64,000 nucleotides of DNA from Promethearchaeota archaeon (lineage in GTDB: Archaea; Asgardarchaeota; Lokiarchaeia; Sigyniarchaeales; SOKP01), in NCBI GenBank assembly GCA_048939995.1, contig JBHLOY010000002.1:320001-384000 (forward strand), in the 5' to 3' direction. Both the position numbers and the translations under genes were made by a program. Positions within the stretch are counted from its first letter, which is position 1; each line of letters begins with the position of its first letter. Under the pieces are notes generated by a model. The model saw only the letters and a list, made by a program, of their open reading frames with translations, was not told where the DNA came from and did no database searches. Of the stretch, positions 1,916 through 39,900 are shown piece after piece.

Positions 1916-3787
1916 TCATTTATATTCTTGATCAATATTTATCCATTCAATATCAAGCTCATTGAGTTTAATTTTAGTAGGAATCCCATCAGTATTCCAA
2001 CCCATTATATTATAATAAATATCCCTAGCTTCATCAAACTTTGTTGCATCAATTGAAATTCTTTCCAATGCTCCTGAGGTGTGTGGTTCAAAGAAACGAG
2101 CAGGAAGCCAATCATCTTCCTTATTAAAACCTTCTCTAATATTGAACATTCTCTCCATATTATTTACCCTCTCACCAAACTTCATTAGTTCCCAAGTAGA
2201 TGCATCCCAACCTGTGACCGCTTTTAATAATTCAGTTTCTTGGTTTATGCTAAATGGCATGAAAAAACAAAATACTAAACTATTTTCCACAGCTCTCCAA
2301 TTAGTTAAGTAAATAAGAGATTTTATCTTTTTTACACTTAAATCCTTAAGAGGAAGTGCATCAAAAATACTTAAAGTTGCAAAACCTTGCATTCTATCTT
2401 GATTAGTTAACCCATCATCATGAAAATTTTTCATATGCTCCGCTCCCGTTGAAGACAAGGCATATCCTATTCCTAAACCATGTTTTAAACGAGGTTCATG
2501 CATTGGTATTTCTTGACCTTTAACATGAATTGCAAATTTATGAGCTTCCTTACCTATTTTTTCTGCAGCTCTCTTTACACCCTCCGCTAATAAATCGCCT
2601 ATTCCCTCACGATTTCCCATCATTTCTAACATCTTTAGCATACTCTGAGAGTCTCCAAAGTTTAATTTCAATCCATTTGTATCTTTTTCAGTTATTATTC
2701 CATTTTCATAACACTCCATCGCAAAACCTATCGTGACACCTGCTGAGATTGTATCCAATGAATATTTATTGCATAATTCATTTGCTTTACAAACCACTAT
2801 TGGATCACTTATACCACAATTTGAACCGAAAGCCGCAAGGGTTTCATATTCAGGTCCCCCGTATTTAGGGTCTAGGTAATTTGATTCATTAATAGACACC
2901 ACTTTTTTACATCTAATAGGACAAGCATAACAAGTTTCTCTTTTTAAATTAATATTTTCACTAAAAATAGCAGGATCTAACTTTTTTGCATTCTTAAATC
3001 CTCCATCTCTAAAATTTCGAGTAGGGAGGTTTCCTGATAAGGCAAATTCTTCCATTCGATTTCCTCCAGTACCAAAAGCAAAATAACGGCTATAGCCTTT
3101 AAAAATTTCATAAGTGTCTTTTAGAATTTGTTTAATTTTATCTTTATTTTCAACTTTTGGCTTAATATTACCTCTAATAGCTATTGCCTTCAAATTTTTG
3201 GACCCCATCACTGCTCCCATTCCACTACGGCCCGCAGCGCTTCTATAGTCGTTTATAACACATGCAAATCGAGTTAAATTTTCACCCGATTTACCAATAC
3301 AGGCTACACGAGCAAAATTGTCATTAACTTCTTTGAGGATTAATTTATGAGTATCTCCAGTAGTCTTACCCCATAAGTGCTTAGCATCTTTTATTTGAAC
3401 CTTATCATTGTGAATCCATAGATAGATTGGACTATTCGCTTTACCTTCAACAATTATTGCATCATAATCCGCGTGTTTTAATTCAGCGCCCCAATATCCT
3501 CCGACTTCAGATACTCCAAAGCCTCCTGTTAAAGGGGATTTAGCCCCAATACTATTTCGTCCTGTTCCTGGAATATTGGTTCCCGTTAATGGTCCTGTGG
3601 CAAAAATTAGCTTATTTTTATCACCTAATGGATTTAATCCCTTTGGGGTTTCTTTAAGAAGAAAATATGCCACAAACCCCTCTCCTCCGAGATATTTTCT
3701 ATAAAAGGATTCCTCTGGATGTTGAACTTTAATTTTGCTAGTTGAAAGGTTGATTCTTAATATATTACCACTATATCCAAATTCCAT
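1916..3787 (-). CDS. aor: tungsten-dependent aldehyde:ferredoxin oxidoreductase family protein
   Basis: GYSGNILRINLS start, AKSPLTGG, AGRSGMGAVMGSKNLKAI, CYACPIRC Fe-S motif, GPEYETL, DTISAG. Confidence 0.93.
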   Translation of the reverse strand: MEFGYSGNILRINLSTSKIKVQHPEESFYRKYLGGEGFVAYFLLKETPKGLNPLGDKNKLIFATGPLTGTNIPGTGRNSIGAKSPLTGGFGVSEVGGYWGAELKHADYDAIIVEGKANSPIYLWIHNDKVQIKDAKHLWGKTTGDTHKLILKEVNDNFARVACIGKSGENLTRFACVINDYRSAAGRSGMGAVMGSKNLKAIAIRGNIKPKVENKDKIKQILKDTYEIFKGYSRYFAFGTGGNRMEEFALSGNLPTRNFRDGGFKNAKKLDPAIFSENINLKRETCYACPIRCKKVVSINESNYLDPKYGGPEYETLAAFGSNCGISDPIVVCKANELCNKYSLDTISAGVTIGFAMECYENGIITEKDTNGLKLNFGDSQSMLKMLEMMGNREGIGDLLAEGVKRAAEKIGKEAHKFAIHVKGQEIPMHEPRLKHGLGIGYALSSTGAEHMKNFHDDGLTNQDRMQGFATLSIFDALPLKDLSVKKIKSLIYLTNWRAVENSLVFCFFMPFSINQETELLKAVTGWDASTWELMKFGERVNNMERMFNIREGFNKEDDWLPARFFEPHTSGALERISIDATKFDEARDIYYNIMGWNTDGIPTKIKLNELDIEWINIDQEYK

Positions 3788-3898
3788 TTTATCCTCAGTT
3801 ATTCGTATCTTTTATATTAGTTTTTATTATATTTTAATTCAAAATAAAGTTTTTAAAAATGAAGTTCATATATACTTCGAAGAAAATTCGAAATTAAT

Positions 3899-5068
3899 CT
3901 AGATTCCATGGCTTTCAAGAACATTAATAACCCTATTTATATCCTCCTCGTTATTATAGTAATGAAATGCGAACCTAAGTAATGTTTGTTCATGAAAATC
4001 AGGGTATCGTTTCAAGGTAACATAAATCTTATTTTTCAGTAAAGTATTGTAAATTTTTTCTGCTTTCTGATGTTCAATAGTAATGATTCCTGATCTAAAT
4101 TCCGGTTCTAATGGTGTTATTATCTTAAAATTATATGATTTTATTTTATTAATGAAAATATTTGTCAGATATATAATTCTTTCTTGTATTCTTTTAATGC
4201 CATCACTTATTTTTCCTCTTCCTATTTGAGTTTTTATTAAATTTAGGGTCCCACTAAAAGATAAAAGAGCTGGAAAGTTAGCACACCCTCCAAAACCGTC
4301 CATATATTTTACTTTGTTAATTACTTCAACATTTTCATTATTTAAATAAAAAGGATTAGCAACACTTAACCAGCTTGAAAAAGGGATCTCTTTTTTATTT
4401 AATAGTTCTTGATTCATGTAGAGAATTCCCACACCATATCCACATGCACCCCACTTTAATGGATTTGCTACAAGAATATCTAGATTATGGTTTTTAGTAT
4501 CAATATCAAATGAACAAAATGATTGAGTTGCATTAATGATGCTAAGTAAATTATGTTCTCTACAGAATACACCCAATTTCTCAAGATTTTGTCTAAAACC
4601 CGTAAGTGATTGTACATGACTATGTATTATATATTTAGTTTCATCTGAAATATTCTGCTTGAAATTATCAATTAAATAAGAATGACTTGTATCTTCCACT
4701 CTCTTACTTGAAAACTTTAAACGTTTAAAAATATGTATGGAAGCAGGAAATTCAATTGAAGGATATAAAAATTCACCCTTTTCCAGAAATCTGGCAATAA
4801 TATTCATTCCTGAAGAAGTGTTGGTTAAAAAGGCGATCTCGTCTGGTTCAGAATTAATATATTCAGCCACATTTTTTCTAGTTTTTTCAATTTCTTCACA
4901 AAAATTCTCATAATGAATATCACCAAAATATAACATGTCTTCAAAATAAGAAATACCCTTTCTATAAGCATCCATGTTTAAAGGAGAAGCCGAACCGGCC
5001 ATAATATAAGTTAGGTTTTTTAAAATCGGAAATTGTTCATTTCGTAATTTTTCCCAATTCACACTCAT
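3899..5068 (-). CDS. class V PLP aminotransferase / cysteine desulfurase-like
   Basis: LRNEQFP...YIMAGSASP, NTSSGMN, EFPAS, PLP lysine in PLKW, RSGI, LRFAFHYYNNEEDI. Confidence 0.85.
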   Translation of the reverse strand: MSVNWEKLRNEQFPILKNLTYIMAGSASPLNMDAYRKGISYFEDMLYFGDIHYENFCEEIEKTRKNVAEYINSEPDEIAFLTNTSSGMNIIARFLEKGEFLYPSIEFPASIHIFKRLKFSSKRVEDTSHSYLIDNFKQNISDETKYIIHSHVQSLTGFRQNLEKLGVFCREHNLLSIINATQSFCSFDIDTKNHNLDILVANPLKWGACGYGVGILYMNQELLNKKEIPFSSWLSVANPFYLNNENVEVINKVKYMDGFGGCANFPALLSFSGTLNLIKTQIGRGKISDGIKRIQERIIYLTNIFINKIKSYNFKIITPLEPEFRSGIITIEHQKAEKIYNTLLKNKIYVTLKRYPDFHEQTLLRFAFHYYNNEEDINRVINVLESHGI

Positions 5069-5234: not shown

Positions 5235-6080
5235 ATGAAGATGGAAGAATTTATTAGATGTTTAAATTGTGGAAAAAAATTAGGATCTAAATCTGGGAAA
5301 ATTCATAATCAATGTACAGAATGCATGTTAAGATTAGATTTCAGATCAGAAGATATAAATCATAAAGATATAGATGAAAATCTGCAAAAAATTTTGGATT
5401 TCTTTATTTCCGATGTAAATGCCGCCTTTAATAAGGATCCTGCAGCTAATACATTACTAGAAGTATTAACAAGCTATCCTGGAATCAAGGCCATTTTATT
5501 GCATCGCATAGCGCATTTTTTCTGGAAAATTAAAATGCCTTTTGTACCAAGATATATTTCGGAAATTTCTCGAGATCTTAGTGGAATCGAAATTCACCCA
5601 GGAGCAGAAATCGGAAGTGATTTCTTTATAGACCATGGGGGGAGTGTAGTCATCGGAGAGACTTCTGTAATTGGCGATAATGTTACAATTTACGCAGGTG
5701 TAGTCTTAGGGGGTACTAACTTAGAGAAAACTAAACGACATCCGTCCATAGGCGATAATGTAGTTATAGGGTCAGGAGCAAAAATTTTAGGTCCTATTAA
5801 TATAGGAAATAATGTTAGAATAGGAGCAAATTCAGTTGTTGTAGAAGATGTTCCACCAAATTGCGTAGTAGTTGGAGTACCCGGTAAAATTGTCTCAAAA
5901 AAAGGCGAAAAAATTGAAAAAATAGATTTAAGACATGGAGATTTACCCGATCCCATTTCTATTGCACTCTCGAGTTTGGAAAAAAGAATTAAGCAATTAG
6001 AGGGTAAACTTTCTATAAGCCCCGACCATAAGAAGGAAGATATAGAAATTTTTTACGGAAATTATGGTGGAGGAATTTAG
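5235..6080 (+). CDS. cysE: serine O-acetyltransferase with N-terminal CxxC...CxxC extension
   Basis: DPAA, YPGIKA..HRIAH, GIEIHPGA, FIDHG, VIGET, KRHP and hexapeptide repeats. Confidence 0.95.
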   Translation: MKMEEFIRCLNCGKKLGSKSGKIHNQCTECMLRLDFRSEDINHKDIDENLQKILDFFISDVNAAFNKDPAANTLLEVLTSYPGIKAILLHRIAHFFWKIKMPFVPRYISEISRDLSGIEIHPGAEIGSDFFIDHGGSVVIGETSVIGDNVTIYAGVVLGGTNLEKTKRHPSIGDNVVIGSGAKILGPINIGNNVRIGANSVVVEDVPPNCVVVGVPGKIVSKKGEKIEKIDLRHGDLPDPISIALSSLEKRIKQLEGKLSISPDHKKEDIEIFYGNYGGGI

Positions 6081-6097
6081 TATTCACATATTAAAAG

Positions 6098-7042
6098 GTG
6101 ATTAAAATAGGTAGAATATATCAAAATATAATTGAAACTATAGGAAATACACCACTAGTTAAATTAAACAAAATAGTTGAAGAAATATCTCCCAAACCAA
6201 ATATTTATGCTAAATTAGAATATTTTAATCCGGGAGGTAGTGTTAAGGATAGGATCGGAATGGCCATGATTGAAACTGCTGAGGATAATGATTTAATTAA
6301 TAAAGATAATATAATTGTAGAGCCTACGTCTGGAAACACTGGTATTGGGTTAGCATTAATCTGTGCTGCTAAAGGATATAAATTAATTTTAACTATGCCA
6401 GAGAGTGTCTCAATCGAACGAAGGAAGATCTTAAAAGCCTACGGAGCACAAGTAATTTTGACTTCCAAAGAAAGCGGAATGAAAGGAGCTATATTAAAAG
6501 CCGAAGAACTTGCAAAAGAAAAAGACATGGTTTTTATACCTCAGCAATTTAAAAATTTAGCAAATCCAGAAATTCATAGAAGAACCACAGCAAAAGAAAT
6601 TTTTAATGATTTGGATGGAAGAGTTGATGCATTTGTAGCGGGGGTAGGTACTGGAGGAACTATTACCGGAGTAGGTGAAATTCTTAAAAAAACAGTAGGA
6701 GCTCGTCTAAAGGTATATGCTGTTGAACCCAAAGATTCTCCTGTTTTATCCGGAGGATCTCCAGGACCACATAAAATCCAAGGAATTGGAGCCGGGTTTG
6801 TTCCAGAAGTATTAAATACACAAATTTATGATAGAATAATACAAGTTGAATATGAAGATGCAATAATAACAGCTAGAAAATTAGCTAAATTGGAAGGAAT
6901 ATTCGCTGGAATAAGTTCAGGAGCAATCGCCTGGGCAGCAATCTACGATATATCTAAAGAGTTTAGTGTAGGAGAAAATGTTGTTTTTGTAGTTTGTGAT
7001 ACTGGAGAACGCTATTTATCTACTGAATTATATGATATCTAA
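6098..7042 (+). CDS. cysK: cysteine synthase A (O-acetylserine sulfhydrylase)
   Basis: IGNTPLV, KLEYFNPGGSVKDR, EPTSGNTGIGLA, GVGTGGT, HKIQGIGAGF, DTGERYLST. Confidence 0.97.
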   Translation: MIKIGRIYQNIIETIGNTPLVKLNKIVEEISPKPNIYAKLEYFNPGGSVKDRIGMAMIETAEDNDLINKDNIIVEPTSGNTGIGLALICAAKGYKLILTMPESVSIERRKILKAYGAQVILTSKESGMKGAILKAEELAKEKDMVFIPQQFKNLANPEIHRRTTAKEIFNDLDGRVDAFVAGVGTGGTITGVGEILKKTVGARLKVYAVEPKDSPVLSGGSPGPHKIQGIGAGFVPEVLNTQIYDRIIQVEYEDAIITARKLAKLEGIFAGISSGAIAWAAIYDISKEFSVGENVVFVVCDTGERYLSTELYDI

Positions 7043-7047
7043 TTGAA

Positions 7048-7947
7048 TCAGGTACTTAGAGGGAGTACACTTGTTGTTAGAATCTCAGTAACTTTTTTCC
7101 AAAGTTCCTTAAAGTCAGGTTTCTTTTTGCCATTTATCCTTCTTGAAATTTCATGGAATAATGCTTTTATCTTTAAAGAATGAAAATAACTAATATTTGG
7201 CGCAATTATGGCTAGCATATATTGTTTTTGACCAAATCTTTCATTTTCTGCTGGAAAAGAATCAAAGTAAGCATAACCAGACATTTTAATATTCTCAAGA
7301 TTTAAAAGTATTCCTTCAGCATTAGTTATTTTACCATGTCCATATATAAATAATGTTGCTTGAAAAAGCTGAGTTCCAACGTCTTCGATAGATACGGGGA
7401 GATTAATAGTTGAGGGATAATGATCATCTAGTTTTGGACCATATTTATCATCCCAGAACATTGAGAGTAAAAATATCTTCTCTTGGTCCTCCATTGAAAT
7501 TGAAGGTTGAACATTTATATCTAGAGAAGACAAGACTGCTTCCATCTTTTCTTTAATAACCTGTCTTTTTTTATTCCTAGTAATCTTACCAGAAATAACA
7601 GCTAATAAATCATCTTCATTAAAAGGTTTTGTTAAATAATCATCTATCCCCAATAATTTACCAAAACGAATATCTTCTGGAGATGATTTTGCTGTAAGGA
7701 ATATGAAAGGAATATGATTCAGAGCTGGATTTTTAGAAATTTCAGTAAAGAATTCATATCCATCTACTTCGGGCATCATAATATCACTAATAATAACCTC
7801 GGGGAGAATATCTGATTGCGAAATGAGATCAAGGGCTTCCTTTCCATTTTTTGCAGATAAAACTCGATATTTATTTGCCTCTAAATTCAATTTAATTGCA
7901 TAAAGGAGATCCACATTATCCTCTACAATCATAATTAGAGGTTTCAT
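7048..7947 (-). CDS. response regulator: REC domain plus C-terminal uDENN/longin-like domain
   Basis: IMIVEDN, SDIMMPEVDG (phospho-Asp), FLTAK, YLTKPF; C-terminal IFLLSMFWDDKYGPKLDDHYP. Confidence 0.85.
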   Translation of the reverse strand: MKPLIMIVEDNVDLLYAIKLNLEANKYRVLSAKNGKEALDLISQSDILPEVIISDIMMPEVDGYEFFTEISKNPALNHIPFIFLTAKSSPEDIRFGKLLGIDDYLTKPFNEDDLLAVISGKITRNKKRQVIKEKMEAVLSSLDINVQPSISMEDQEKIFLLSMFWDDKYGPKLDDHYPSTINLPVSIEDVGTQLFQATLFIYGHGKITNAEGILLNLENIKMSGYAYFDSFPAENERFGQKQYMLAIIAPNISYFHSLKIKALFHEISRRINGKKKPDFKELWKKVTEILTTSVLPLST

Positions 7948-8023
7948 TGTTATGCCCTTTAATAAAATAGATGTCTTTATTTTTATATTTATTGAATGAT
8001 TATTTAAAAGTTATCAATTTTTA

Positions 8024-10708
8024 TCATGGAATTCTTGGAAAGAAAATGGAAAATGTTGTTCCATTTCCATATTCGCTTTCTACATATACTTTTCCTTGAT
8101 GAAGTTGGATCAATTCTTTTGCTATTGTTAATCCAAGCCCTGTTCCTGGGATATCTTTGACTGATCTGGCTCGATAAAACCTATTAAAAATAAAAGGAAG
8201 GTCTTCTTCATGAATTCCCATTCCATAATCTATAATTTGAAATAAAATTCCATCAATCCCTTCAGGATTAAATTGTCCAGTGTAGTGATCAACAGCTTTA
8301 ATTATTATTTTGGATTCCTTTTCAGAGTATTTCCAGGCATTATCTATAAATATTCTGAAAATCTGCTTAATATGATTGAGATCCCCATTTATCCGTAGAT
8401 CTTTTTTTAAATCTAATTCAACTATAATATTTTTCGATTTAATGTTTAGATCCATTAAATCAAGAACTTCGGAGATAAGCTCAAAAGGAGAATAAACCTC
8501 TAAATTTAAGAGCATTTTTTTCTCATCTATCCTTGATAACATTAAAAGATCATTTACTAATTCATTAAGCAAATTAACATTTCTCATAATTCCCCGCATC
8601 AAATTATATTCTTGCTCATTTGTTATATTTTCACGATATTTATTTAAGTAATTTAATGACATCAATAAAACAGCTATAGGATTCCGCAATTCATGCGAGA
8701 CAGTAGATACAAATTGTTCTAACTTTTGCTCAGCTTGTTTATGCTCAATAAAACGGCTAATAATTTCAGCAATCGTACGGGTTAACTCCTCTTCTTCTTT
8801 TAAAAAGAGTGAGTTATTATCATGTAAATAAATTTCAATTGAACCTAAATTTTTATCATATACTTTAATATCTGCCTTGATATTCCATTGAGTGAGCATA
8901 AAATTTTTAGCTGTAAATTCGTTTCCATCAAATAAGATCCTTGCATATGTCTTTTCTGGAAACTGAAACGCTGAGGGGAGAATTTCTAGAATTTCATTGA
9001 ATAGATCAGATTCTTCTTTTTCAAATTCTGAAGCAAAACCTGAAGTTTGATATAAGCATGTAAACTCTTTTACTCTTTCTTTCAATTCACTTTCGCTTTT
9101 AGTTAAAGCTCTTTCGAATTTTTTTCGTAACGTAATATTTGAGATAATTCCATCATATCGAATAATATTGCCTTTTTCATCCTCAATTGGGACTCCTTGA
9201 TCTCTTAAATAAAATACTTCACCTGTATCATTGTGAACAACCCGATATTCTAAATCATATCCTATTTTTAAAGAAATATTTTCATGAATTTGATTCTTGA
9301 TTTTATCTCGATCCTCAGGATGGATAACTTTTAACCACAGATTCTCATCATCATAATGCTCTTTTGGTGTTATACCCGTCCAGACTTTCCATAAGTCTGA
9401 GATAAAGATTACAGTTCTTTTTTCATTTGATAAAGTTGAATAAATTACGTTAGGTATATTCTCAACTAAGTTACGATACTTTTTTTCGCTATTTATAAGG
9501 GCCAATTCTGCTTTTTTATGTTCTGTTATATCTGATATAAAAGCGATTGCACCATCGTATTCTAGTTTTTCATCAAGAAGAGGTGCTGTTTCTAATCTAG
9601 TATAGACTTTGTTACCATTTTTATGTAAAAATTCAAATTCATGCTGTTCTTTAATGCCTTCCTCCCTCCTTTTCAAATATTTCTTAGACTTTTCAACATT
9701 TTCCTTATCCATAAAAGCAAATAGATGTTTTCCTATCATTTCTTGTTCAGAGTAACCCAAAATTTCCGTCATTCTTTTATTAACGTAAGTAGTATATGCA
9801 TTTTTATCGATTGCCCAAATACCTTCATGGGCACTCTCTACAAATAATCTATACTTTTCTTCGCTTTCCTTAATCTTAAGGAAAGAATCTTCAAGGGCAA
9901 TTGTTTTAGAAAGAAGCCTTTTTTCACTTAATTTTAATTTCCGGTATAAAAGATCAATTGGATTTCGCAAACCTATACTAATAATAGCTTTATATAAGAG
10001 GAAAAATGCTGGAATTTTTAAAATGTGACCAATTAAGTTGGAAATATCAAAAGCGGAAATATAGAAAGTAAAAGCTAATTCTGATACAATTGTTAATATT
10101 ATTGAGAATATTAATAAAATAAAAATATTAAAATCGAAAATTAATCGATTCCTATACATTATAAGAAGTGTTATTACCAAAATAATATCAATAATATACT
10201 CACTAATTACTTTAAACGGGGTTAATCCACTCCCTTCAATGTAACAAACTGGAAATAACCTTAAAAAAATTAATATAATTAATATTGCGGTATAAAAGGT
10301 AAATCCAAGCAGATAATACTTCGCATTGACTTTTTTATTTAGTACTAAAGAAGCTATTAAAAGCGATATTGATTGCAAATACCGAGCTGCTATCCATAAT
10401 TGAGCAGGAAGATTAGTATCATATCCAATAAAAATATTCATCCCAGGATAGGCTAATGTGTGGATTAAATCAATAAATCCTATAAAAATAAAAGATAGTC
10501 CAACAACTAAAAAGAAATTGTTATCAATATGTTCCCTGGAATTATATAAAATTGCAAAGATAGTGACCTTTATTACGATGCTAAACAATTCAGCAAGATT
10601 ATGAAAAAGCAAATAACTGTAAAAATTTGTTAAATATATTAAAATAAGTATTAAGACAAAAATGTAATAATCAATGTGATAATTCTTCCTTGTTTGTTGA
10701 TCACTCAT
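8024..10708 (-). CDS. membrane sensor histidine kinase (MASE3-PAS-PAS-GAF-like-HisKA-HATPase)
   Basis: MASE3-type LLFHNLAELFS / HTLAYPGM / QLWIAAR; two PAS domains; H-box VSHELRNP; DNAWKYS; DYGMGI; GTGLGL. Confidence 0.93.
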   Translation of the reverse strand: MSDQQTRKNYHIDYYIFVLILILIYLTNFYSYLLFHNLAELFSIVIKVTIFAILYNSREHIDNNFFLVVGLSFIFIGFIDLIHTLAYPGMNIFIGYDTNLPAQLWIAARYLQSISLLIASLVLNKKVNAKYYLLGFTFYTAILIILIFLRLFPVCYIEGSGLTPFKVISEYIIDIILVITLLIMYRNRLIFDFNIFILLIFSIILTIVSELAFTFYISAFDISNLIGHILKIPAFFLLYKAIISIGLRNPIDLLYRKLKLSEKRLLSKTIALEDSFLKIKESEEKYRLFVESAHEGIWAIDKNAYTTYVNKRMTEILGYSEQEMIGKHLFAFMDKENVEKSKKYLKRREEGIKEQHEFEFLHKNGNKVYTRLETAPLLDEKLEYDGAIAFISDITEHKKAELALINSEKKYRNLVENIPNVIYSTLSNEKRTVIFISDLWKVWTGITPKEHYDDENLWLKVIHPEDRDKIKNQIHENISLKIGYDLEYRVVHNDTGEVFYLRDQGVPIEDEKGNIIRYDGIISNITLRKKFERALTKSESELKERVKEFTCLYQTSGFASEFEKEESDLFNEILEILPSAFQFPEKTYARILFDGNEFTAKNFMLTQWNIKADIKVYDKNLGSIEIYLHDNNSLFLKEEEELTRTIAEIISRFIEHKQAEQKLEQFVSTVSHELRNPIAVLLMSLNYLNKYRENITNEQEYNLMRGIMRNVNLLNELVNDLLMLSRIDEKKMLLNLEVYSPFELISEVLDLMDLNIKSKNIIVELDLKKDLRINGDLNHIKQIFRIFIDNAWKYSEKESKIIIKAVDHYTGQFNPEGIDGILFQIIDYGMGIHEEDLPFIFNRFYRARSVKDIPGTGLGLTIAKELIQLHQGKVYVESEYGNGTTFSIFFPRIP

Positions 10709-10767
10709 ATTAATCCTAAAGGAATTAGAACAATACTGATTTTTGCATTAAAATAATTTCTAAATTT

Positions 10768-11307
10768 TTAAATATTTGCTCTTTCGAAAACAGTGTAAAT
10801 TGTTGTTTTATAAATTTCATCCCAAAATTTAGTAGGAATAATTTCTTTTATCTTTGCAATTAATTCTCCTATTAATGTATCAGTAATTTCAGGTTTAACT
10901 TCTTTTAAATTAGGATCACTTTTATGTAAAAAAATTGAAAATTTAATTTGATCTTTCTCACCGCTAATTTTATTAAATATTCTCTTTAAATAATCTAGCG
11001 CTATATCATATCTCTCTGGGTCTTGTATATCTATAACATATATTAGTTTATCAGTCTCTTTAAAATTATCTTTAAAATCTTGCAGATGTTTCATTCTATA
11101 TTGTTCTTGGCCCCCAAAATCCCAAATATTAAAATATTCATCATTTAAAGTCAAATTTGAGGTTTCAATTCCTCGTGTTGGATTAGAAGTTTTTAATGAC
11201 ATTAAGTTCATTCCCTTTAAGCTTAACACTATGGAAGTTTTTCCACCATTATCTAAACCAACAAAAATGATTTTTTTTGCAGTCAAATTTACATTTTTTT
11301 TTGGCAT
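10768..11307 (-). CDS. small GTPase, Rag/Arf-like Asgard type
   Basis: G1 GLDNGGKT, G2 PTRG, G3 WDFGGQ, G4 HKSD, G5 KTTIY. Confidence 0.92.
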   Translation of the reverse strand: MPKKNVNLTAKKIIFVGLDNGGKTSIVLSLKGMNLMSLKTSNPTRGIETSNLTLNDEYFNIWDFGGQEQYRMKHLQDFKDNFKETDKLIYVIDIQDPERYDIALDYLKRIFNKISGEKDQIKFSIFLHKSDPNLKEVKPEITDTLIGELIAKIKEIIPTKFWDEIYKTTIYTVFERANI

Positions 11308-11342
11308 TAAAATACCTTTTTACAATACTCCTGTTAAACAAG

Positions 11343-11690
11343 TTAGGATAATATATCATACATTTCTCTTTTTTTTCGCTCTAAAAATTCTTTATTATTA
11401 GAGTTTTCGATGAAAGTTTTCATTTGAGATAATAATTTAAAGATATCTTTGTTTTTAATCCCATAATAATTAATATTCTTTTTGTTAATTTCTCTAATAT
11501 CAGATTCTACTAAATTAAATTCAATTAAAGTGTTTAAATGATGAGAAATTGTTGATTGCTTTTTTCCTAATAATTCTTCAATTTGTTTGGAAGTTTTTTG
11601 GTTACCTTTTAATTGTTCTAATATGTTTAAGCGAGTTTCATCACATAGTAGTTTTAAAAATTTAATTAGTTGCAGATTCGTTTCAGACAT
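11343..11690 (-). CDS. ArsR/SmtB family transcriptional regulator
   Basis: LKLLCDETRLNILEQL, QSTISHHLNTL. Confidence 0.88.
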   Translation of the reverse strand: MSETNLQLIKFLKLLCDETRLNILEQLKGNQKTSKQIEELLGKKQSTISHHLNTLIEFNLVESDIREINKKNINYYGIKNKDIFKLLSQMKTFIENSNNKEFLERKKREMYDILS

Positions 11691-11871: not shown

Positions 11872-12399
11872 ATGGCAACAGAACTATTTGAAATTGATGA
11901 TATTGATAAAAATATTATCCAATTAATCCAACAAGAACCCACGCTTACACATACAGAGATTGCTAAAAAAGTTAATCGTTCTCAACCAACAATTGGAATG
12001 CGGATAAGGAAATTGGAAGAAAATGGAATATTAAAGTTTCAAGCAGGAATTAACGTGAGAACAACTGATTTATTTCTTGCTCGAGCAGAAATTCAAGCAT
12101 TAAATACTTCTGAGATTATAAATTTGGTAAAAAAATGCCCTTATATGTTGAATGCATTTAGATTAAGTGGGTCTTCGAATATTAGTGTATTAATGGCGAG
12201 CCCTAGATTAGATCGCTTAGATCATATCGTAAATCACCATTTTAGAAAAAATCCAAATGTTATTTCAGTGTATATTGATGTAATTACTGAGATTGTTGAA
12301 GATTTTGTATTAAATTTTGATTTTGATTTTGATAAATGTGGTATAACAAAAGAAGGGCTCTGCTGTGAAAAATGTTTAAATAAAGTTTGTAAAAAATAG
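11872..12399 (+). CDS. Lrp/AsnC family regulator with Cys-rich C-terminal tail
   Basis: IDDIDKNIIQLIQ...EIAKKVNRSQPTIGMRIRKLEENGIL HTH; RAM domain; tail CGITKEGLCCEKCLNKVC. Confidence 0.9.
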   Translation: MATELFEIDDIDKNIIQLIQQEPTLTHTEIAKKVNRSQPTIGMRIRKLEENGILKFQAGINVRTTDLFLARAEIQALNTSEIINLVKKCPYMLNAFRLSGSSNISVLMASPRLDRLDHIVNHHFRKNPNVISVYIDVITEIVEDFVLNFDFDFDKCGITKEGLCCEKCLNKVCKK

Positions 12400-12760: not shown

Positions 12761-14203
12761 ATGAAAATTTATAATAGTTTAACATTTGCAAAGGAAGAGT
12801 TCAAAACCATTGAACCGAATAAAGTAAAGATATACGTCTGTGGTCCCACAGTCTACGATAGTCCACATTTGGGTCATGCTAAATCAGCTGTAGCATTCGA
12901 TATAATACATCGATATTTTAAATATAAGAATTTTGAGGTCAATATTGTCAAGAATTATACAGATATAGATGATAAAATTATCAAACGAGCCAATGAACTA
13001 AACGCAGATTATCAAGATTTAGCTAAAAAGTATATTAAAGAGTACCAAGAAGTTACTAAAGCTTTGAACATTGAAAAGGAGACTAAAAATCCACGTGCGA
13101 CTGAAGTAATTCCTTTTATAATTGAGTTCATTAAAGAATTGATTAGAAAGGGACATGCCTATGAAAATAATGGATCTGTCTATTTCTCCGTTAAAAGCTT
13201 CCCTAGATACGATTCAATTTTACAAAATGTAAAAGACAATATAGTTCAAGAAGAAGATGAGGATTATATTGATGATCAAGATACTGCATTTGGTGAAGAT
13301 AAATTAGATACTAGAGATTTTGCATTATGGAAAAAAGCAAAGGAAGGTGAGCCTTTCTGGGAAAGTCCATGGGGTAGAGGTCGACCTGGATGGCATATCG
13401 AATGCTCTGCAATGATTTTAAACTTCTTAGGTGAGACTATTGATATACATGGAGGAGGACAAGATTTAAAGTTCCCACATCATCGAAATGAAATCGCTCA
13501 ATCAGAGTCATATACTGGGAAACCTTTCGTGAATTACTTTATACATAATGGATTTGTCAATATCGATGATGAGAAGATGTCCAAAAGTCAAGGTAATTAT
13601 TTCTTAGTATCAGAAATTTTAAAAGATTATGATCCTATGGTAATCCGATTGTTCCTTATCTCAAGTCATTATCGTAGTTCAATAAATTATACACTTGATA
13701 ATATAGAACAAGCAAGAAAGAACTATAATAGATTAATTAATACAATAAAAAAAGTAAGGGGAGCTGAAATAACACAAAAACTGACTGAGGATAATTTAGT
13801 CATTAAAATTAGTGATACTAAAGAAAGTATCATCAATGCAATGGATGACGATTTTGACACGCCTACTGCATTGGCTGAATTATTCACTCTCTTTAGAGAG
13901 GTGAATAAGGTAATACTTGAGGAAAAAGTTAAAACTTCACCTGAATTTCATAAAAAATTCTTCGAATTCATTAAATTTATAGATCAAATTCTTGGAATTT
14001 TTCCTAACTTAGAACAAAAGTTAGAGAATTTCCCAATTGAAGGTGTTGATGAAAGTGATAAACTTATTAAAAATCTTATTGACCTCCTCGATGAAATTAG
14101 GACAAGGCTGAGAGAAAGAAAGCAATTTGACATTAGCGATTACATAAGAGACAAATTAAACGAGTTTGGAATAAAAGTTGAAGATAAAGCATTAAATCAA
14201 TAA
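12761..14203 (+). CDS. cysS: cysteine--tRNA ligase
   Basis: YVCGPTVYD, HLGH, DFALWK, GRPGWHIECSAM, HGGGQDLKFPHH, KMSKS; GGTGA RBS upstream. Confidence 0.98.
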   Translation: MKIYNSLTFAKEEFKTIEPNKVKIYVCGPTVYDSPHLGHAKSAVAFDIIHRYFKYKNFEVNIVKNYTDIDDKIIKRANELNADYQDLAKKYIKEYQEVTKALNIEKETKNPRATEVIPFIIEFIKELIRKGHAYENNGSVYFSVKSFPRYDSILQNVKDNIVQEEDEDYIDDQDTAFGEDKLDTRDFALWKKAKEGEPFWESPWGRGRPGWHIECSAMILNFLGETIDIHGGGQDLKFPHHRNEIAQSESYTGKPFVNYFIHNGFVNIDDEKMSKSQGNYFLVSEILKDYDPMVIRLFLISSHYRSSINYTLDNIEQARKNYNRLINTIKKVRGAEITQKLTEDNLVIKISDTKESIINAMDDDFDTPTALAELFTLFREVNKVILEEKVKTSPEFHKKFFEFIKFIDQILGIFPNLEQKLENFPIEGVDESDKLIKNLIDLLDEIRTRLRERKQFDISDYIRDKLNEFGIKVEDKALNQ

Positions 14204-14414: not shown

Positions 14415-15440
14415 TTGAGGATGAATTATAAAAAAGAAAGTGACGTATTAGGAATAGGATTAATTTCCGGGGGTTTGGACAGTTTAATTGCTTCATTAAT
14501 ACTTAAACTTCAAGATGTAGAAATCATAGGTCTTAACTTTAAATCTCCCTTTTGTATATGCGACAAAGCTCTAAAGAATGCTGAATGTGGTTTAAACCTC
14601 TATTATGAAAAATTAGGGATCAGGCTTTTTCACATTCAAAAAGAAGATGATTATTTAGAGATTATCCGTAATCCTAAATTTGGATATGGAAGAAACTTAA
14701 ATCCTTGTATTGATTGTAGGATTTACATACTCAAAAAAGCAAAAGAATTTATGTATAACACCAATGCTGATTTTGTATTTACAGGAGAAGTGCTAAACCA
14801 AAGACCCAAATCTCAAAATCTAAAAGCTTTAAATATAATTGAAAAAGAAGCTGGACTTGAAGGACAATTGTTGAGACCCTTATCTGCTTTATTATTAAAA
14901 CCTTCAAAAATAGAAGAAAATGGCTTGATTGACAGATCCAAGTTATTAGGAATAAAAGGTAGGAGTAGAAAAATTCAACTCGAATTAGCTAGGAAAAATG
15001 ATCTTTTAAAAGAATATTATGCATGTGGAGGTTGTTTATTAACTGATCAACAATTTTCAAGAAGAATGAGGGATTATCTTGAATTTAATACTAATTTATC
15101 GATGAAAGACATAAGTTTTCTAAAATTTGGGCGGCATTTTCGATATAATAATTCTAAGATAATTATAGGTAGAAATAGATTTGAGAATGAAATGTTAGTT
15201 CAAATAAGAAATACGAATGATATAATAATGGAGGTAAAAGATGTACCTGGACCAATTACTCTTATTCAGGGAAAATTTAATAAAGAATCTATTCATATGG
15301 CTGCTCAACTCACTTTAAGATATTCAGATGCTAAAGGGAATAATGGATCCATAATTTATGGAAATCATCCCGATAAATTAGACAAATTAATGACAGTCAA
15401 AAAAGTAAATGATAACTCTCTCAAAACTTATTTAATATAA
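14415..15440 (+). CDS. ThiI/MnmA-like PP-loop tRNA thiolation enzyme with DUF814-like C-terminus
   Basis: SGGLDS PP-loop, NPCIDCR, TGEVLNQRPKSQ, CGGCLLTD, GRHFR, IIGRN. Confidence 0.82.
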   Translation: MRMNYKKESDVLGIGLISGGLDSLIASLILKLQDVEIIGLNFKSPFCICDKALKNAECGLNLYYEKLGIRLFHIQKEDDYLEIIRNPKFGYGRNLNPCIDCRIYILKKAKEFMYNTNADFVFTGEVLNQRPKSQNLKALNIIEKEAGLEGQLLRPLSALLLKPSKIEENGLIDRSKLLGIKGRSRKIQLELARKNDLLKEYYACGGCLLTDQQFSRRMRDYLEFNTNLSMKDISFLKFGRHFRYNNSKIIIGRNRFENEMLVQIRNTNDIIMEVKDVPGPITLIQGKFNKESIHMAAQLTLRYSDAKGNNGSIIYGNHPDKLDKLMTVKKVNDNSLKTYLI

Positions 15441-15446
15441 CTTAAA

Positions 15447-15986
15447 TTAAGATTCCATTTTCTTATATTCACAATATTTACAATTAGTACTACACCCATC
15501 TTCTAAATTTGGGAACATAAGTTCAGAATCAGTATCAATGGGTAAAACAAAATTTTTTACTGTGTCAGTTATAAATTCCAGCAAAATTTCATGAACATTA
15601 CTATTATCCCTAAAATGTTGATCAACAACATTATTTAGCTTCTTAATATCAGTATTTGCTATTAAAATGGACAAATTATACTTTCCACTTAATCTAAAAG
15701 CATTAAGCATAAATGGGCAATGATTTACCATATCTACAATTTCCTCAGGATTTTTAGTATTTAAATTTACAAATGCTAATTGAATTCCTATCTTTTTAAA
15801 ATTTAATCCTGCTTGTAGCTGCAAAATTCCTTTTTCTTTAAGTTTTCTTAATCTAGTCCCTACAGTTGGTTGACTACGATTAACAATTTCTGCAATTTGA
15901 TAATGAGTTAAATTTGGATCTTCTTGCAATAATGATATTAGTTTTAAATCAATTTTATCTAACTTTAATTTTTTATCATTCAACAT
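15447..15986 (-). CDS. Lrp/AsnC family regulator with Cys-rich tail (paralog of 11872..12399)
   Basis: LDKIDLKLISLLQ, NRSQPTVGTRLRKL, CPFMLNAFRLSG shared with the paralog; tail CSTNCKYC. Confidence 0.9.
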   Translation of the reverse strand: MLNDKKLKLDKIDLKLISLLQEDPNLTHYQIAEIVNRSQPTVGTRLRKLKEKGILQLQAGLNFKKIGIQLAFVNLNTKNPEEIVDMVNHCPFMLNAFRLSGKYNLSILIANTDIKKLNNVVDQHFRDNSNVHEILLEFITDTVKNFVLPIDTDSELMFPNLEDGCSTNCKYCEYKKMES

Positions 15987-26981: not shown

Positions 26982-28229
26982 TTAAATTTTAATCTTTTTT
27001 TTTTCTTGGGGTTGGTTATTGTCAGAGATTTGATTGAGTGATTTCTTATATATTTGGATTTGTTGGTACAATTTTTCACAAAAATCTTCAAATTCCATTG
27101 GATCAAAGCTAGAACCAATTTCTCTATGAACTTCTAGCTTTCTCAAATCATCCCAACTTAGCCCAACTCCCAATATGGGAATAATTGTCAGCCCCGTATC
27201 TCGAGCAATATTTAATTCAGTAGCGCAATCAACTGATGTTAATGACTTTTCAGTAGAAATGAAAAGTAGTAATTGACAACGGGGCACCGTTTTTTGCATC
27301 CAAGCATCAATATTTCCAGTTAAATCAGCTTCGCAATAATAGACATAGCGTATTCCTTTTTGGTTCTCTAAGAAATGGGCAATTTCATTAATCCTATATC
27401 TATTATAATCCTCAACCGCGTGAGTAATAAAGATACGAATCCCTCGCTTGAAAGTTGTCCCTAATTCTATAAATCGACTTGCAATTACAACTCCAATTAA
27501 AGAAGTTAAAAGCGCTATGAAAGAATAAATATCTATCTGAGCTACGATGTAGAAAATGAAAGTGAATATCCATCTCACAAAAAAAGCTCCGAAAAACATA
27601 ATTCCGCTTAAAGTAAAATAAATCGTTCTTATTCTTTGTCCAAAAAATATCAAATAACTAGCTGAAATCGTAGCTAAAAGAAAAGTTGAATAAAGAAACA
27701 GGAGGTAAAATGTTGCGTTATATGACAATGTAATATGAATAACTAAATTAAATAACCTGTCTACCAAATACAAAATTGCGAACGCGATCATATAATTTCC
27801 ATAATATTTTCTGTTACTAAATCCAAACAGCACAAAGGTAAAAATTAAAAGAAAGACAGCGCCATCGGAAATGGTTAGCATTAGCCAATATAAGTTTGGA
27901 AAAGTATTTATTATGAAATTTAGGAAGAAAAAATCAAGGCTATATCCTAATAACATATTAATAAAAGTATATCCCACTTGAGTTATCATAAAATACACGT
28001 AAGGTATAACCGGAATAATCTTTATCAGCTTTAATTGTTTGAATTCTCTTTTATCCGTCTCTAAATCTTTACTTCCTATTACCAAAAGAGATAAATAAAT
28101 TAAATTTAGAGAGTAATCTAGATACAAATTAACAGCAAAAAAGTAAATCAGAACATGTAAAGGAAGGATAAAATTAATTAAAACAACCAAACCAATCTTA
28201 TATTTTGTTTGCATATATAACACTCTCAT
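26982..28229 (-). CDS. multipass membrane protein with C-terminal TIR domain
   Basis: About 8 TM segments, then IFITHAVED, YYCEADL, LLLFISTEKSLTSVDCATEL, IIPIL. Confidence 0.8.
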   Translation of the reverse strand: MRVLYMQTKYKIGLVVLINFILPLHVLIYFFAVNLYLDYSLNLIYLSLLVIGSKDLETDKREFKQLKLIKIIPVIPYVYFMITQVGYTFINMLLGYSLDFFFLNFIINTFPNLYWLMLTISDGAVFLLIFTFVLFGFSNRKYYGNYMIAFAILYLVDRLFNLVIHITLSYNATFYLLFLYSTFLLATISASYLIFFGQRIRTIYFTLSGIMFFGAFFVRWIFTFIFYIVAQIDIYSFIALLTSLIGVVIASRFIELGTTFKRGIRIFITHAVEDYNRYRINEIAHFLENQKGIRYVYYCEADLTGNIDAWMQKTVPRCQLLLFISTEKSLTSVDCATELNIARDTGLTIIPILGVGLSWDDLRKLEVHREIGSSFDPMEFEDFCEKLYQQIQIYKKSLNQISDNNQPQEKKKIKI

Positions 28230-36930: not shown

Positions 36931-39900
36931 ATGCTTTGTGTTTTATCAGATAATTTTAAAAGATTTATTCTACGAATAGGGTTAAAATTGAAGTTAAAAG
37001 TATCAAAAGCAGGTTTTATTCTTTTCTTGCTTTCAATTCAAATAATATCAGCTACAGTTTTTCTCGGTAATAATACTAATTTAAATGAAGTAGAAAAGAT
37101 TAATAAAGATTTTAAAAAAAAAAGTATCCGCGCATCATCAACTTATCCGAATGACGCTCTCCACTTTAAATATTACAAAAATATATCTATAAATCATGAT
37201 AAAGTCATGGGAATTGGTAATCATTCGAATTTTCCCGTTCTAATTTCAATTCTAGACAACGATTTACATTCTTACACTCAACCTGATGGAGATGACATAG
37301 CATTTTCTATGGGAAGTATCTGGTTAGACCATGAAATAGAAATGTATAATCGAGATTACAGTGCAACACAAGCCAAATTAATTGCTTGGGTTCGAGTCCC
37401 AGGCCTCTCAACATCTAATGATACAATAATTAGGATGTATTTTTGCAATTTAACCATGACATCGCGAGAAAATCCTGCAGGAGTTTGGAATAATAATTAT
37501 CTGGGAGTATGGCATCTTTCGGAATCAAATGGAAACGCAAAAGATTCTACTTCCTATATGGAAGATGGAACTGTATCAGGAGGCGTCACGCAAGGGACAT
37601 CCGGGCAAATAGCTAATTCTTATTATTTTGATCGCGATAGTATGGGTACCGTAAATATGGGAGATCCTTCAGATGGGCACCTTGATTTTAGAGATGGAGA
37701 TGACTTTTCTATTAGTTTTTGGATTAATTTAGATTATTTTTATTATTACAATCCATTTATTGTCAGTAAAAGAGCTGGTATTGGATCATCAAGTCAGGGA
37801 TATTCTGTTCAAATGTATGATGACTCACATGGAATACCTTTTTATGGTATATCTTCTAATGGCCCAGAATATGAAGTAGATGGAACTAATGATTGTTTGT
37901 ATCAAGGATGGAAATATATTACCGCAACATGGGATGAAGATAATAGCTCAGGTTGTAAAATTTATTTGGATGGTTTAGAGGAGACATCAAACAGAATTGG
38001 AACAATAGGAAATATAGATGATATATCAAATGCAGAAAATTTCAAGTTAAATGGCCCAAGTAGTCCAAATACGGAATATATGTTTGATGGTAAATTGGAT
38101 GAAGTCCGCGTATCAGATATTGTTCGTTCATCGGATTGGATTGCTACTGAATATAACAATCAATATGATCCAGCAAGCTTTTATTCTATTGGTCTAGTTA
38201 AAGAAGTAATTCCTCTGAAATCAGAATATTTCAACTTTTACAAAGTAATGACCATTGATCATACTAAAGTCGCTGGAACGAATGATCTTGTCGATTATCC
38301 GTTATTTCTCTCACTCATAGATCCAGATCTAAAAGATCAAGTTCAATCTGATGGAGATGATATAGTTTTTGCAATGGATGGAAGTTGGCTCGATCACGAG
38401 ATAGAATTATTTGATCAGAATTATGATCCAAATTATGGGAAACTAATTGCCTGGATACGCATTCCGATACTATACCATAGTATAGACACTGAGATATATA
38501 TGTATTATGGGAATTCTACTATGAGATCACACCAAAATCCATTAGGAGTATGGAATAATAATTATAAGGGAGTTTGGCATTTATCTGAGTTAAGTGGTAA
38601 TTCAATGGATTCCACAGGATATGGAACTGAAGGAGTTCCTACAGTTGGAGTTACTCAGGGAGAAAGTAGTCTATCTGGTTATGGATATGATTTTGATGGG
38701 ATTGATAGTAATGTTGATTTTGGAGATCCTATTGATGATCATCTCGATTTTGGTATCAATAGTTTTACTATTAGTATGTGGCTAAGGATTGATAGCAGTA
38801 CGGCCACCTGGCAAGTCCCTCTCACTAAAGGACACCCAAGTGGTGCTAGTAATGATGGATACAGATTTGAAACCTCATCAGATGGACAAAGAATATATTT
38901 TCAAATAGGTGATGGAAATATTTTTGAATCCAGTTATTCTCAGAATATTATATTTGGAGCATGGATGCATATTGTTGGTCGTGTTGATAGAACTAGTAAT
39001 AGGATATATCTGTTTAAAGATGGTGGTCATAGTGGATATAAAGACATTAGTAGTATTGGAAATATAATTACATCAAGTCCTCTCACATTTTCACGTATGA
39101 ATAATGCACTTGATGGAGTTCTTGATGAAGTCCGTATATCTGATACTTCTCGTTCAGATGGTTGGATTGCTACCGAATACAATAACCAATATAATCCTGA
39201 TACGTTTTATTCCATTAGTGATCGTAATCATGTGAGACGCCCAAAACCAGAATATTTCAACTTTTATAAAGCATTAACAATTGATCATAATAAAGTTTCA
39301 GGAATAACTAACCTTATCGATTTTCCACTATTGATCTCACTTGAAGATCCAGATCTAAAAGATCAAGTACAATCTGATGGAGATGATATTGCCTTTTGGA
39401 ATGGTTCAGCATGGTTAGACCATGAAATAGAATTTTTTGATCAAAATTATAATCCAAGTTTTGGGAAGTTAGTTGTATGGGTACGAATTCCTATACTTTA
39501 TTATTATAAAGACACCACTATATACATGTGCTACGGAAACCTTACATTATGTTCTCAAGAATCTTCTAAAGGTGTGTGGGATAGAGACTATGATTTTGTA
39601 CTTCACATGAATCAGGATCCTTCTTCTTCAGATATTTTAGACAGTACTTTAAACGGATTTGATTTCAATGTCGAAACTGGAGGAGTAATGACATCAGGTG
39701 ACCTTGTTGATGGAAAAGCTGGAAAAGCAATTGCTTTTGACGGAAATGATGATTATATTTATTTACCTGAGTCTGAAGGTTTTTCGGGATCAATTGACAA
39801 AATGACATTCGAATTTTGGCTAATGCTTCCAAATGGAGTTCCTAGTGTGCGGGATACTTTAGCAAGACCAGCAACCACAGATAGATCTCCTAATCTATAT

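Follow-up and report, generated by a model that had tools for sequence, protein, structure and literature searches.

The window analyzed here is a 64,000-nucleotide stretch from a Promethearchaeota archaeon of the Lokiarchaeia (assembly GCA_048939995.1, contig JBHLOY010000002.1, positions 320,001 to 384,000). On its minus strand lies a four-gene cassette encoding an ArsR-family protein, a small GTPase, a MASE3-PAS-PAS histidine kinase and a response regulator, in which a predicted longin domain behind the receiver resembles the FLCN- and GATOR1-type GTPase-activating proteins (GAPs) by fold and residues, although it is not a member of those complexes. The four genes are co-oriented with intergenic distances of 35, 59 and 76 bp, as an earlier model-generated reading of the sequence (the original prediction) had described and the open reading frame coordinates confirm. 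The features of the cassette, in window coordinates, are as follows.

11343-11690, minus strand: ArsR-family winged-helix protein, 115 amino acids (Pfam PF01022, HTH_5)
10768-11307, minus strand: stand-alone Rag-like small GTPase, 179 amino acids (Pfam Arf and Gtr1_RagA, profile search, fold)
8024-10708, minus strand: membrane sensor histidine kinase, 894 amino acids (Pfam MASE3, PAS, PAS_3, HisKA and HATPase_c; motif positions)
7048-7947, minus strand: response regulator (receiver, linker and predicted longin), 299 amino acids (Pfam, AlphaFold2, conservation)
7594-7947, minus strand: REC domain of the regulator, residues 1-118 (Pfam PF00072, E 5e-25, match to residues 5-118)
7507-7593, minus strand: charged linker between receiver and longin, residues 119-147 (sequence)
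7048-7506, minus strand: predicted longin output domain, residues 148-296 (AlphaFold2, fold searches, conservation, profile chain)

The GTPase matches both the Arf (78.5 bits, residues 11-146) and the Gtr1_RagA (71.3 bits, residues 12-174) families of Pfam. Motifs G1 to G5 are intact, comprising an Arf-like P-loop (G1, residues 17-24), PT (43-44), WDFGGQ (62-67) with the catalytic Q67, HKSD (128-131) and TTIY (168-171). The chain ends at residue 179, after G5, without a C-terminal roadblock tail, and is therefore termed Rag-like and not a Rag proper. Features of Arf-type membrane attachment are absent, there being ten polar residues before strand 1 and no Gly2, C-terminal cysteine or transmembrane helix. 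A profile of 37 relatives placed two Asgard Rag-like structures first and RagC/D as the best eukaryotic match, aligned along the entire domain; Arl3/Arf6 followed closely, across a shorter span. The modeled fold scores highest against LokiRagO (Z 21.9) and Gtr1/RagA (Z 20-21), followed by Arf (Z ~17). These comparisons, in part of a model, support a G domain structurally nearer to Rag/Gtr than to Arf, in agreement with what had been proposed from the motifs.

The kinase comprises MASE3 (residues 28-250), two PAS domains, HisKA and HATPase_c, with a probable GAF-like segment at residues ~540-660. H672 is present in HisKA and the N, G1, F and G2 boxes of HATPase_c are intact. The receiver is likewise complete in its acidic pocket (E9/D10), phospho-acceptor D55 (codon 7783-7785), T85 and K107, and on motif inspection both proteins bear the hallmarks of classical two-component systems. 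D55 is retained in 79 of the 80 receiver-longins in the fetched loci. The linker that follows the receiver is likely helical or coiled-coil. The genome encodes ~10 kinase-like genes and seven receiver genes, and a single receiver-longin.

ArsR lacks conserved metal-binding Cys/His residues in an alignment of neighbors. It is the most constant neighbor of the GTPase across loci, and is a candidate for either an operon regulator or a GTPase effector. ArsR genes, again without conserved metal-binding residues, also precede members of the GTPase subfamily at loci that have no two-component genes (L218, L219, L222-L225, L227 and L229-L231).

The output domain of the regulator

Pfam assigns no family to the C-terminal 180 amino acids of the regulator, and neither the output domain nor its 110-row alignment gave a significant family when searched by sequence against Pfam and PDB; assignment as a longin therefore rests on structure and profile-profile comparison. 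The domain is common to 149 representatives (50% clustering), mostly in proteins of ~295 amino acids. A scan of the genome contigs with the whole regulator protein returned mainly bacterial receiver domains and was set aside.

AlphaFold2 on the 110-row alignment gave a model with a predicted local distance difference test (pLDDT) of 92.6 and a predicted template modeling score (pTM) of 0.88. Its topology, ββ-α-βββ-αα, is that of a longin, with a five-stranded sheet, no N-terminal roadblock helix and an extra C-terminal helix (DSSP order in the output-domain model: E12-19, E23-30, H40-55, E64-70, E75-85, E93-102, H107-125, H132-144). The best VIA match is a Loki longin (8yqg; Z 13.8, root-mean-square deviation 2.9, 134 residues aligned), followed by Lst4 (Z 12.1, 2.8, 123), C9orf72-SMCR8 (Z 11.7, 3.3, 139) and the FLCN complex (Z 11.1, 2.8, 132); TRAPP and SNARE longins (Z 8-9.4), adaptin longins and roadblocks all fall below these GAP-type matches. 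Foldseek ranked FLCN-FNIP2 and GATOR1/SEA chains at the top, an Atlas structure search returned Asgard folliculin-like, SMCR8 and C9orf72 clusters at TM-scores of 0.72-0.78, and ESM Atlas feature matches of 0.78-0.81 provide leads only. The model thus indicates that the output domain almost certainly adopts a longin fold, of the kind seen in FLCN, SMCR8, C9orf72 and NPRL2, and neither the structural nor the profile checks contradicted that proposal. Its description as a uDENN/NPRL2-type domain is accurate as regards a longin that is uDENN-like, but the regulator ends three residues past the modeled longin and so has no cDENN or dDENN part, unlike the FLCN, SMCR8 and C9orf72 DENN proteins proper.

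A strand-WDDKYGP-x5-P stretch occupies regulator residues 158-178, where the original prediction had recognized a strand-D-x-x-x-GP-x5-P signature. Among 110 relatives, the WD-x3-GP motif (W165-P171, nucleotides ~7435-7455) is conserved at 96% for W165, 78% for D166, 95% for G170 and 93% for P171. We consider the signature to be above chance because W165, G170 and P171 are each this strongly conserved and all three sit on the β1-β2 hairpin of the predicted longin. The GP motif is reported to be specific to GAP longins, being absent from adaptins, TRAPP and DENND proteins, and in C9orf72 (G38-P39) it adjoins the essential W33-D34 (PMC12290439). The spacing from WD to GP in the regulator is identical to that in C9orf72, the GP opening strand 2 and the WD lying five residues ahead of it.

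A candidate arginine finger, R237 (7237-7239), lies in the β4-β5 loop and is conserved in 76% of the relatives. It was placed by means of Asgard longins that pass the Pfam Folliculin cut-off, used as an intermediate profile. This profile aligned with the regulator family (hhalign 96.6%, E 4.9e-10), putting R237 on an invariant ARG, and its best PDB match was human folliculin, with the arginine aligned to FLCN residue 164 (E 0.006), which is the catalytic finger (10.1101/2022.06.28.498039). The genome's folliculin-like longin searched directly against PDB found nothing. R237 is present in 43 of the 46 receiver-longins adjoining the two partner GTPase clades described below. A C9orf72-type WD motif and an FLCN/SMCR8-type arginine therefore appear on one regulator chain, which may accordingly work as a single copy or as a homodimer, in contrast to the heterodimers of eukaryotes. 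Judged by these sequence marks, the output domain very probably belongs to the GAP class of longins.

Several variants of this arrangement were observed. The receiver-longins of Ca. Heimdallarchaeum aukensis (UJG41438.1; L172:7037-7942) and endolithica (UJG44242.1; L173:7025-7930) keep the tryptophan and GP, have leucine in place of the arginine, and lie ahead of a kinase with no GTPase nearby. Paired receiver-longins, one with and one without the arginine, occur in three cases only (L179, L193:6973-8856 and L194:6988-8927) and recall the catalytic and non-catalytic partners of FLCN-FNIP and NPRL2-NPRL3; locus L162 also has two, both with the arginine. The same longin subfamily is found behind PAS domains without a receiver (L052:7019-8701 and L053:7092-8096, the latter lacking the arginine), as one-component sensor versions. 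Two fusions are encoded elsewhere in the window's genome. One is an 1122-amino-acid protein (L217:4111-7479, minus strand; G000:C31:62110-65478) that joins an Arf-like GTPase (146-307) to a longin with GP and arginine (~320-460) and continues with PAS-PAS-GAF and a degenerate kinase-like end having Asn at the usual histidine position, so that every element of the cassette's logic sits on a single chain, a hint that these parts work together. The other, of 470 amino acids (L071:502-1914, minus strand; G000:C17:450477-451889), joins a folliculin-like longin with GP motif and DANARG to a Rag-like GTPase and is a candidate GAP, either for the G domain of its own chain or for that of a partner.

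Conservation of the cassette and the modeled complex

Members of the longin family occur in 43 of 61 relatives and, across the phylum, in 117 of 301 genomes; among these are 83 of 91 from the window's own family, 19 of 19 from a family of another class, and the two species Ca. Heimdallarchaeum aukensis and endolithica. Searches of 71 genomes from one large family of the phylum, and of several other families, did not find it. The order ArsR, GTPase, kinase, regulator is kept at 28 loci in six genera and two families, and the short co-oriented gaps that mostly separate the genes there suggest, as far as sequence can, that the four may form one operon. Promoter (sigma-70) and terminator scans, based on a model ill-suited to archaea, gave counts at chance level. 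DNA contigs from four runs span the cassette region piecewise. An Lrp/AsnC gene is divergent or nearby in 32 of 38 cassette loci, in most genera sampled, with some loci cut by contig ends.

The stand-alone cassette GTPases, 38 in number, form one clade in a tree (FastTree support 0.994), and no further GTPase of this genome falls within it. The GTPase stays next to the receiver-longin where the kinase is missing (L050, L179, L197) or where the GTPase itself is inverted (L180, L184), and a second GTPase clade (n=5, support 1.0) lies 22-182 bp directly downstream of a paralogous receiver-longin. In a reverse test, done by hand from listed coordinates, 54 of the 60 best evaluable GTPase matches were within ~5.5 kb of a longin match; of the others, five were near contig ends and one was separate. 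For comparison, the share of this genome's genes within such a distance of this GTPase is 0.3%, and of any Rag/Arf-like GTPase 3%. Genus g20 (0 of 4) and two genomes of the window's own genus gave neither a match to the GTPase nor one to the longin. Only Rag/Arf-like neighbors were weighted in the adjacency counts; adjacency to any small GTPase in distant lineages is weak evidence because 17% of genes have one within 5.5 kb. The GTPase is thus conserved with the kinase-regulator pair, as the original prediction needed it to be, and its pairing with the receiver-longin is common but not obligatory.

A structure prediction of regulator and GTPase together, the check that had been proposed, was run with the longin domain as two longins, the GTPase, GTP and Mg. 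The complex scored 0.72 and the best of three controls 0.00; of 80 solved complexes 58 attained the mark, as did 2 of 110 mismatched pairs. Agreement between runs covered at least 91% of contacts, and partner pLDDT was at least 80. One longin makes nearly all of the confident contacts, with W165-K172 facing the P-loop (D19, N20), switch I (P43) and switch II (Q67-Y70). The closest modeled pairs include G170-Q67 and D167-D19/N20, and R237 faces P43, N20 and N42. In the model, therefore, the contacts have the geometry of an arginine-finger GAP, with R237 and the GP loop at the active site. This score may reflect likeness to known complexes instead of binding by this particular copy, since FLCN-RagC, GATOR1-Rag and C9orf72-SMCR8-Arf1 have been solved.

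Proposed mechanism and relation to known systems

In standard two-component chemistry a kinase autophosphorylates before passing on the phosphate. We predict that the membrane kinase, in which the relevant domains and motifs are observed, senses a signal via MASE3 and PAS and autophosphorylates H672, and that it then phosphorylates D55 of the regulator, as the adjacency of the genes and the intact residues suggest. The longin would dock on the nucleotide face of the GTPase with its WDDKYGP hairpin, as modeled, against the P-loop and Q67, and R237 would reach between P-loop and switch I to speed GTP hydrolysis in the manner of FLCN, NPRL2 and SMCR8. Phosphorylation of D55 would gate this activity, probably through a receiver-driven change in dimerization or an unmasked GP/Arg face, with activation slightly favored as the sign of control. 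A soluble effector would then read the nucleotide state of the GTPase. This is the weakest step; gene order makes the co-encoded ArsR the best candidate, with transcription as its output, and we regard such a role for ArsR as possible but doubtful. That the longin binds the neighboring GTPase is probable, and that the regulator is a phosphorylation-gated GAP for this GTPase, controlled by the adjacent kinase, is the interpretation that we favor on balance.

A number of observations weigh against this interpretation. The link between R237 and FLCN R164 depends on a two-step alignment, the second step of which is modest (E 0.006), and the arginine is missing from the Ca. Heimdallarchaeum members. 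The second longin copy barely contacts the GTPase in the model, leaving the dimer step unsupported. Most cassette loci come from one family whose genomes are kin, so the counts show conservation and not independent events. No small GTPase lies within 5.5 kb of 24 of the 80 receiver-longins, some of which are at contig ends, and weaker-scoring GTPase paralogs without a receiver-longin occur at 13 loci (selected for that property). Finally, the genome holds ~72-85 small-GTPase-like genes, so the longin could serve others.

The last three of these points bear on the idea that the regulator is a kinase-gated GAP for another or several Rag/Arf-like GTPases, of which the genome has 11, and that the neighbor is co-regulated within an ArsR-GTPase unit of older origin, the two-component pair having been inserted there later. 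At 10 of the 13 loci without a receiver-longin ArsR is retained upstream of the GTPase, which suggests that ArsR-GTPase is a unit of its own, and the complex test can also be passed by proteins closely related to a true partner. However, the link between GTPase and regulator outlasts kinase loss and inversion, arose also with the second GTPase clade, and is kept by 54 of the 60 closest GTPases, and we consider this explanation quite unlikely. Only a little less unlikely is that the longin does bind the neighboring GTPase, but in the role of guanine nucleotide exchange factor (GEF), inhibitor or effector platform, or that the GTPase stands upstream and itself modulates the regulator. The majority of longins serve as GEFs or platforms (PMC10933270), as do most longin/roadblock dimers, FLCN-FNIP can bind in an inactive mode (the inactive folliculin complex of the lysosome), DENND1, TRAPP and Mon1-Ccz1 are among the fold matches, at lower Z, and the complex model cannot separate catalysis from binding. 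Against this, the GP motif as well as the arginine finger has been reported to mark the GAP class and both are conserved, R237 being kept in nearly all of the receiver-longins beside partner GTPases, and the model brings both R237 and the GP loop to the catalytic site.

In archaea, signaling by response regulators is often a matter of simple protein-protein contact (PMC5847659), and the longin could accordingly be a dimerization or scaffold output only, or the receiver a phosphate sink, with the gene order reflecting shared regulation, for example of cysteine metabolism, as cysE, cysK, cysS and Lrp flank the cassette here. We regard this as very improbable: it leaves the conservation of the exposed GP loop and of R237 unexplained, and the cysE/cysK flank is limited to this genus. 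Returning to the phosphorylation-gated GAP, a broader proposal is that the cassette is a complete and minimal prokaryotic forerunner of Rag control, in which a one-gene longin GAP with an arginine finger, switched by a histidine kinase, acts on a bare Rag-like G domain, ArsR (with Lrp) reads the state for transcription, and tandem Arg-plus/Arg-minus paralogs show a possible origin of heterodimers like FLCN-FNIP and NPRL2-NPRL3. Taken as a whole, this proposal is speculative and rather unlikely.

With FLCN-FNIP2 (acting on RagC/D), GATOR1 NPRL2-NPRL3 (RagA/B) and C9orf72-SMCR8 (Arf1), the regulator shares the predicted longin fold and a GP motif on the β1-β2 hairpin, together with a C9orf72-type WD, a β4-β5 arginine equivalent to FLCN R164 by alignment, and a likely Rag-type client with catalytic Gln. 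In contrast to these eukaryotic GAPs, to which identity is ~10-17%, it has a single longin behind a phospho-receiver, without cDENN/dDENN or winged-helix parts, and WD and Arg are on one chain instead of two subunits. The GTPase that it likely serves is a G domain alone, lacking a roadblock tail and any evident membrane anchor, and a histidine kinase would exert the control that lysosomal transporters and GATOR2 have in eukaryotes.

Many Asgard fusions of NPRL2-like longins with two-component domains are presented by Liu et al. (bioRxiv 10.1101/2020.10.19.343400, Fig. 5c), in whose proposal prokaryotic two-component systems and eukaryote-like regulators are combined in the control of growth in Asgard archaea. 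Theirs is the same kind of fusion; the available portion of the text names no arginine finger, GAP role, GTPase partner or cassette. Asgard FLCN/SMCR8-type longins with GP motif and arginine finger have also been described, with GAP activity proposed (PMC12290439, Traffic 2025). These have the same motif arrangement, but no receiver fusion is mentioned and the choice between ArfR and Rag/Gtr partners was left open, whereas the cassette supplies a candidate GTPase partner. The longin/two-component fusion (2020) and the arginine-finger Asgard longins (2025) are thus already published. No such output domain appears in a census of archaeal two-component systems from 2018. Our literature search, which mostly excluded subscription journals, found no paper on this cassette, on a tested Asgard longin GAP or on LokiRag.

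The closest solved G domains are those of the Asgard Rag-like GTPases LokiRagO (8yl2) and LokiRagM (8zla/9m28), at 32% identity and, for LokiRagO, Z 21.9; these proteins have 342-385 amino acids with extra domains, compared with the bare 179-amino-acid G domain here. MK-D1 likewise has a Rag-like class (PMC10933270). MK-D1 GTPases are rarely in operons with regulators, and gene layout was no help in matching them (PMC10933270); the cassette is an exception in that the GTPase adjoins a putative regulator.

The cassette is also comparable to the Myxococcus MglA-MglB-RomR/RomX system, in which a prokaryotic small GTPase is tied to a roadblock-fold GAP and a response regulator. The likeness lies in linking a small GTPase, a GAP-type partner and a response regulator. 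MglB is, however, a roadblock homodimer, and MglA itself provides the catalytic arginine (PMC8336837). RomR is a protein of its own, whereas here receiver and longin are one chain and the arginine is predicted to be supplied in trans.

Asgard archaea are close relatives of the ancestors of eukaryotes, and here a GAP-type longin and a Rag-like GTPase are found side by side. The cassette offers a matched, small and soluble pair, a 150-amino-acid longin or the 299-amino-acid regulator with the 179-amino-acid GTPase, equipped with a predicted catalytic residue and a putative built-in on/off switch. It bears on whether arginine-finger control of Rag GTPases upstream of mTORC1 predates eukaryotes, whether one longin suffices where eukaryotes use two, and whether a Ras-superfamily switch is under the direct control of a phosphorelay of bacterial type. 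These prospects are tempered by the prior publication of the fusion and motifs and by the centering of the system on Lokiarchaeia.

Flanking genes and other features of the window

The cassette is bordered by genes of cysteine metabolism and a second type of regulator.

5235-6080, plus strand: cysE, serine acetyltransferase (Pfam)
6098-7042, plus strand: cysK, cysteine synthase (Pfam)
11872-12399, plus strand: divergent Lrp/AsnC-family regulator (Pfam)
12761-14203: cysS

cysE and cysK are on the opposite strand from the regulator gene and converge with it tail to tail. The description of the system as embedded among cysteine genes is true of the window, but cysE and cysK flank the cassette only in loci of the window's genus, and cysS is near it in three genera. 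The cysteine genes were accordingly rejected as a defining part of the cassette, and, being largely confined to this genus, the setting is weak evidence for an amino-acid signal.

Beyond cysS, a ThiI-like/NFACT tRNA-modifying gene (14415-15440, plus strand) and a second Lrp/AsnC regulator (15447-15986, minus strand) lengthen the sulfur and amino-acid neighborhood. Downstream of cysE, the regions 1-1684 and 1916-5068 (both minus strand) contain a second PAS-containing kinase-like gene, an aldehyde oxidoreductase and a cysteine-desulfurase-like gene, which recur beside the cassette within the window's genus. Farther along, a 415-amino-acid protein (26982-28229, minus strand) has a TIR_2 domain (residues 266-353) and is a possible NADase or defense gene. 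A 3009-amino-acid surface protein (36931-45960, plus strand) with LamG and DUF2341 repeats and a transmembrane helix near residue 2536 ends in a cytoplasmic longin-like tail starting WDERVG, and has two paralogs on contig C28.

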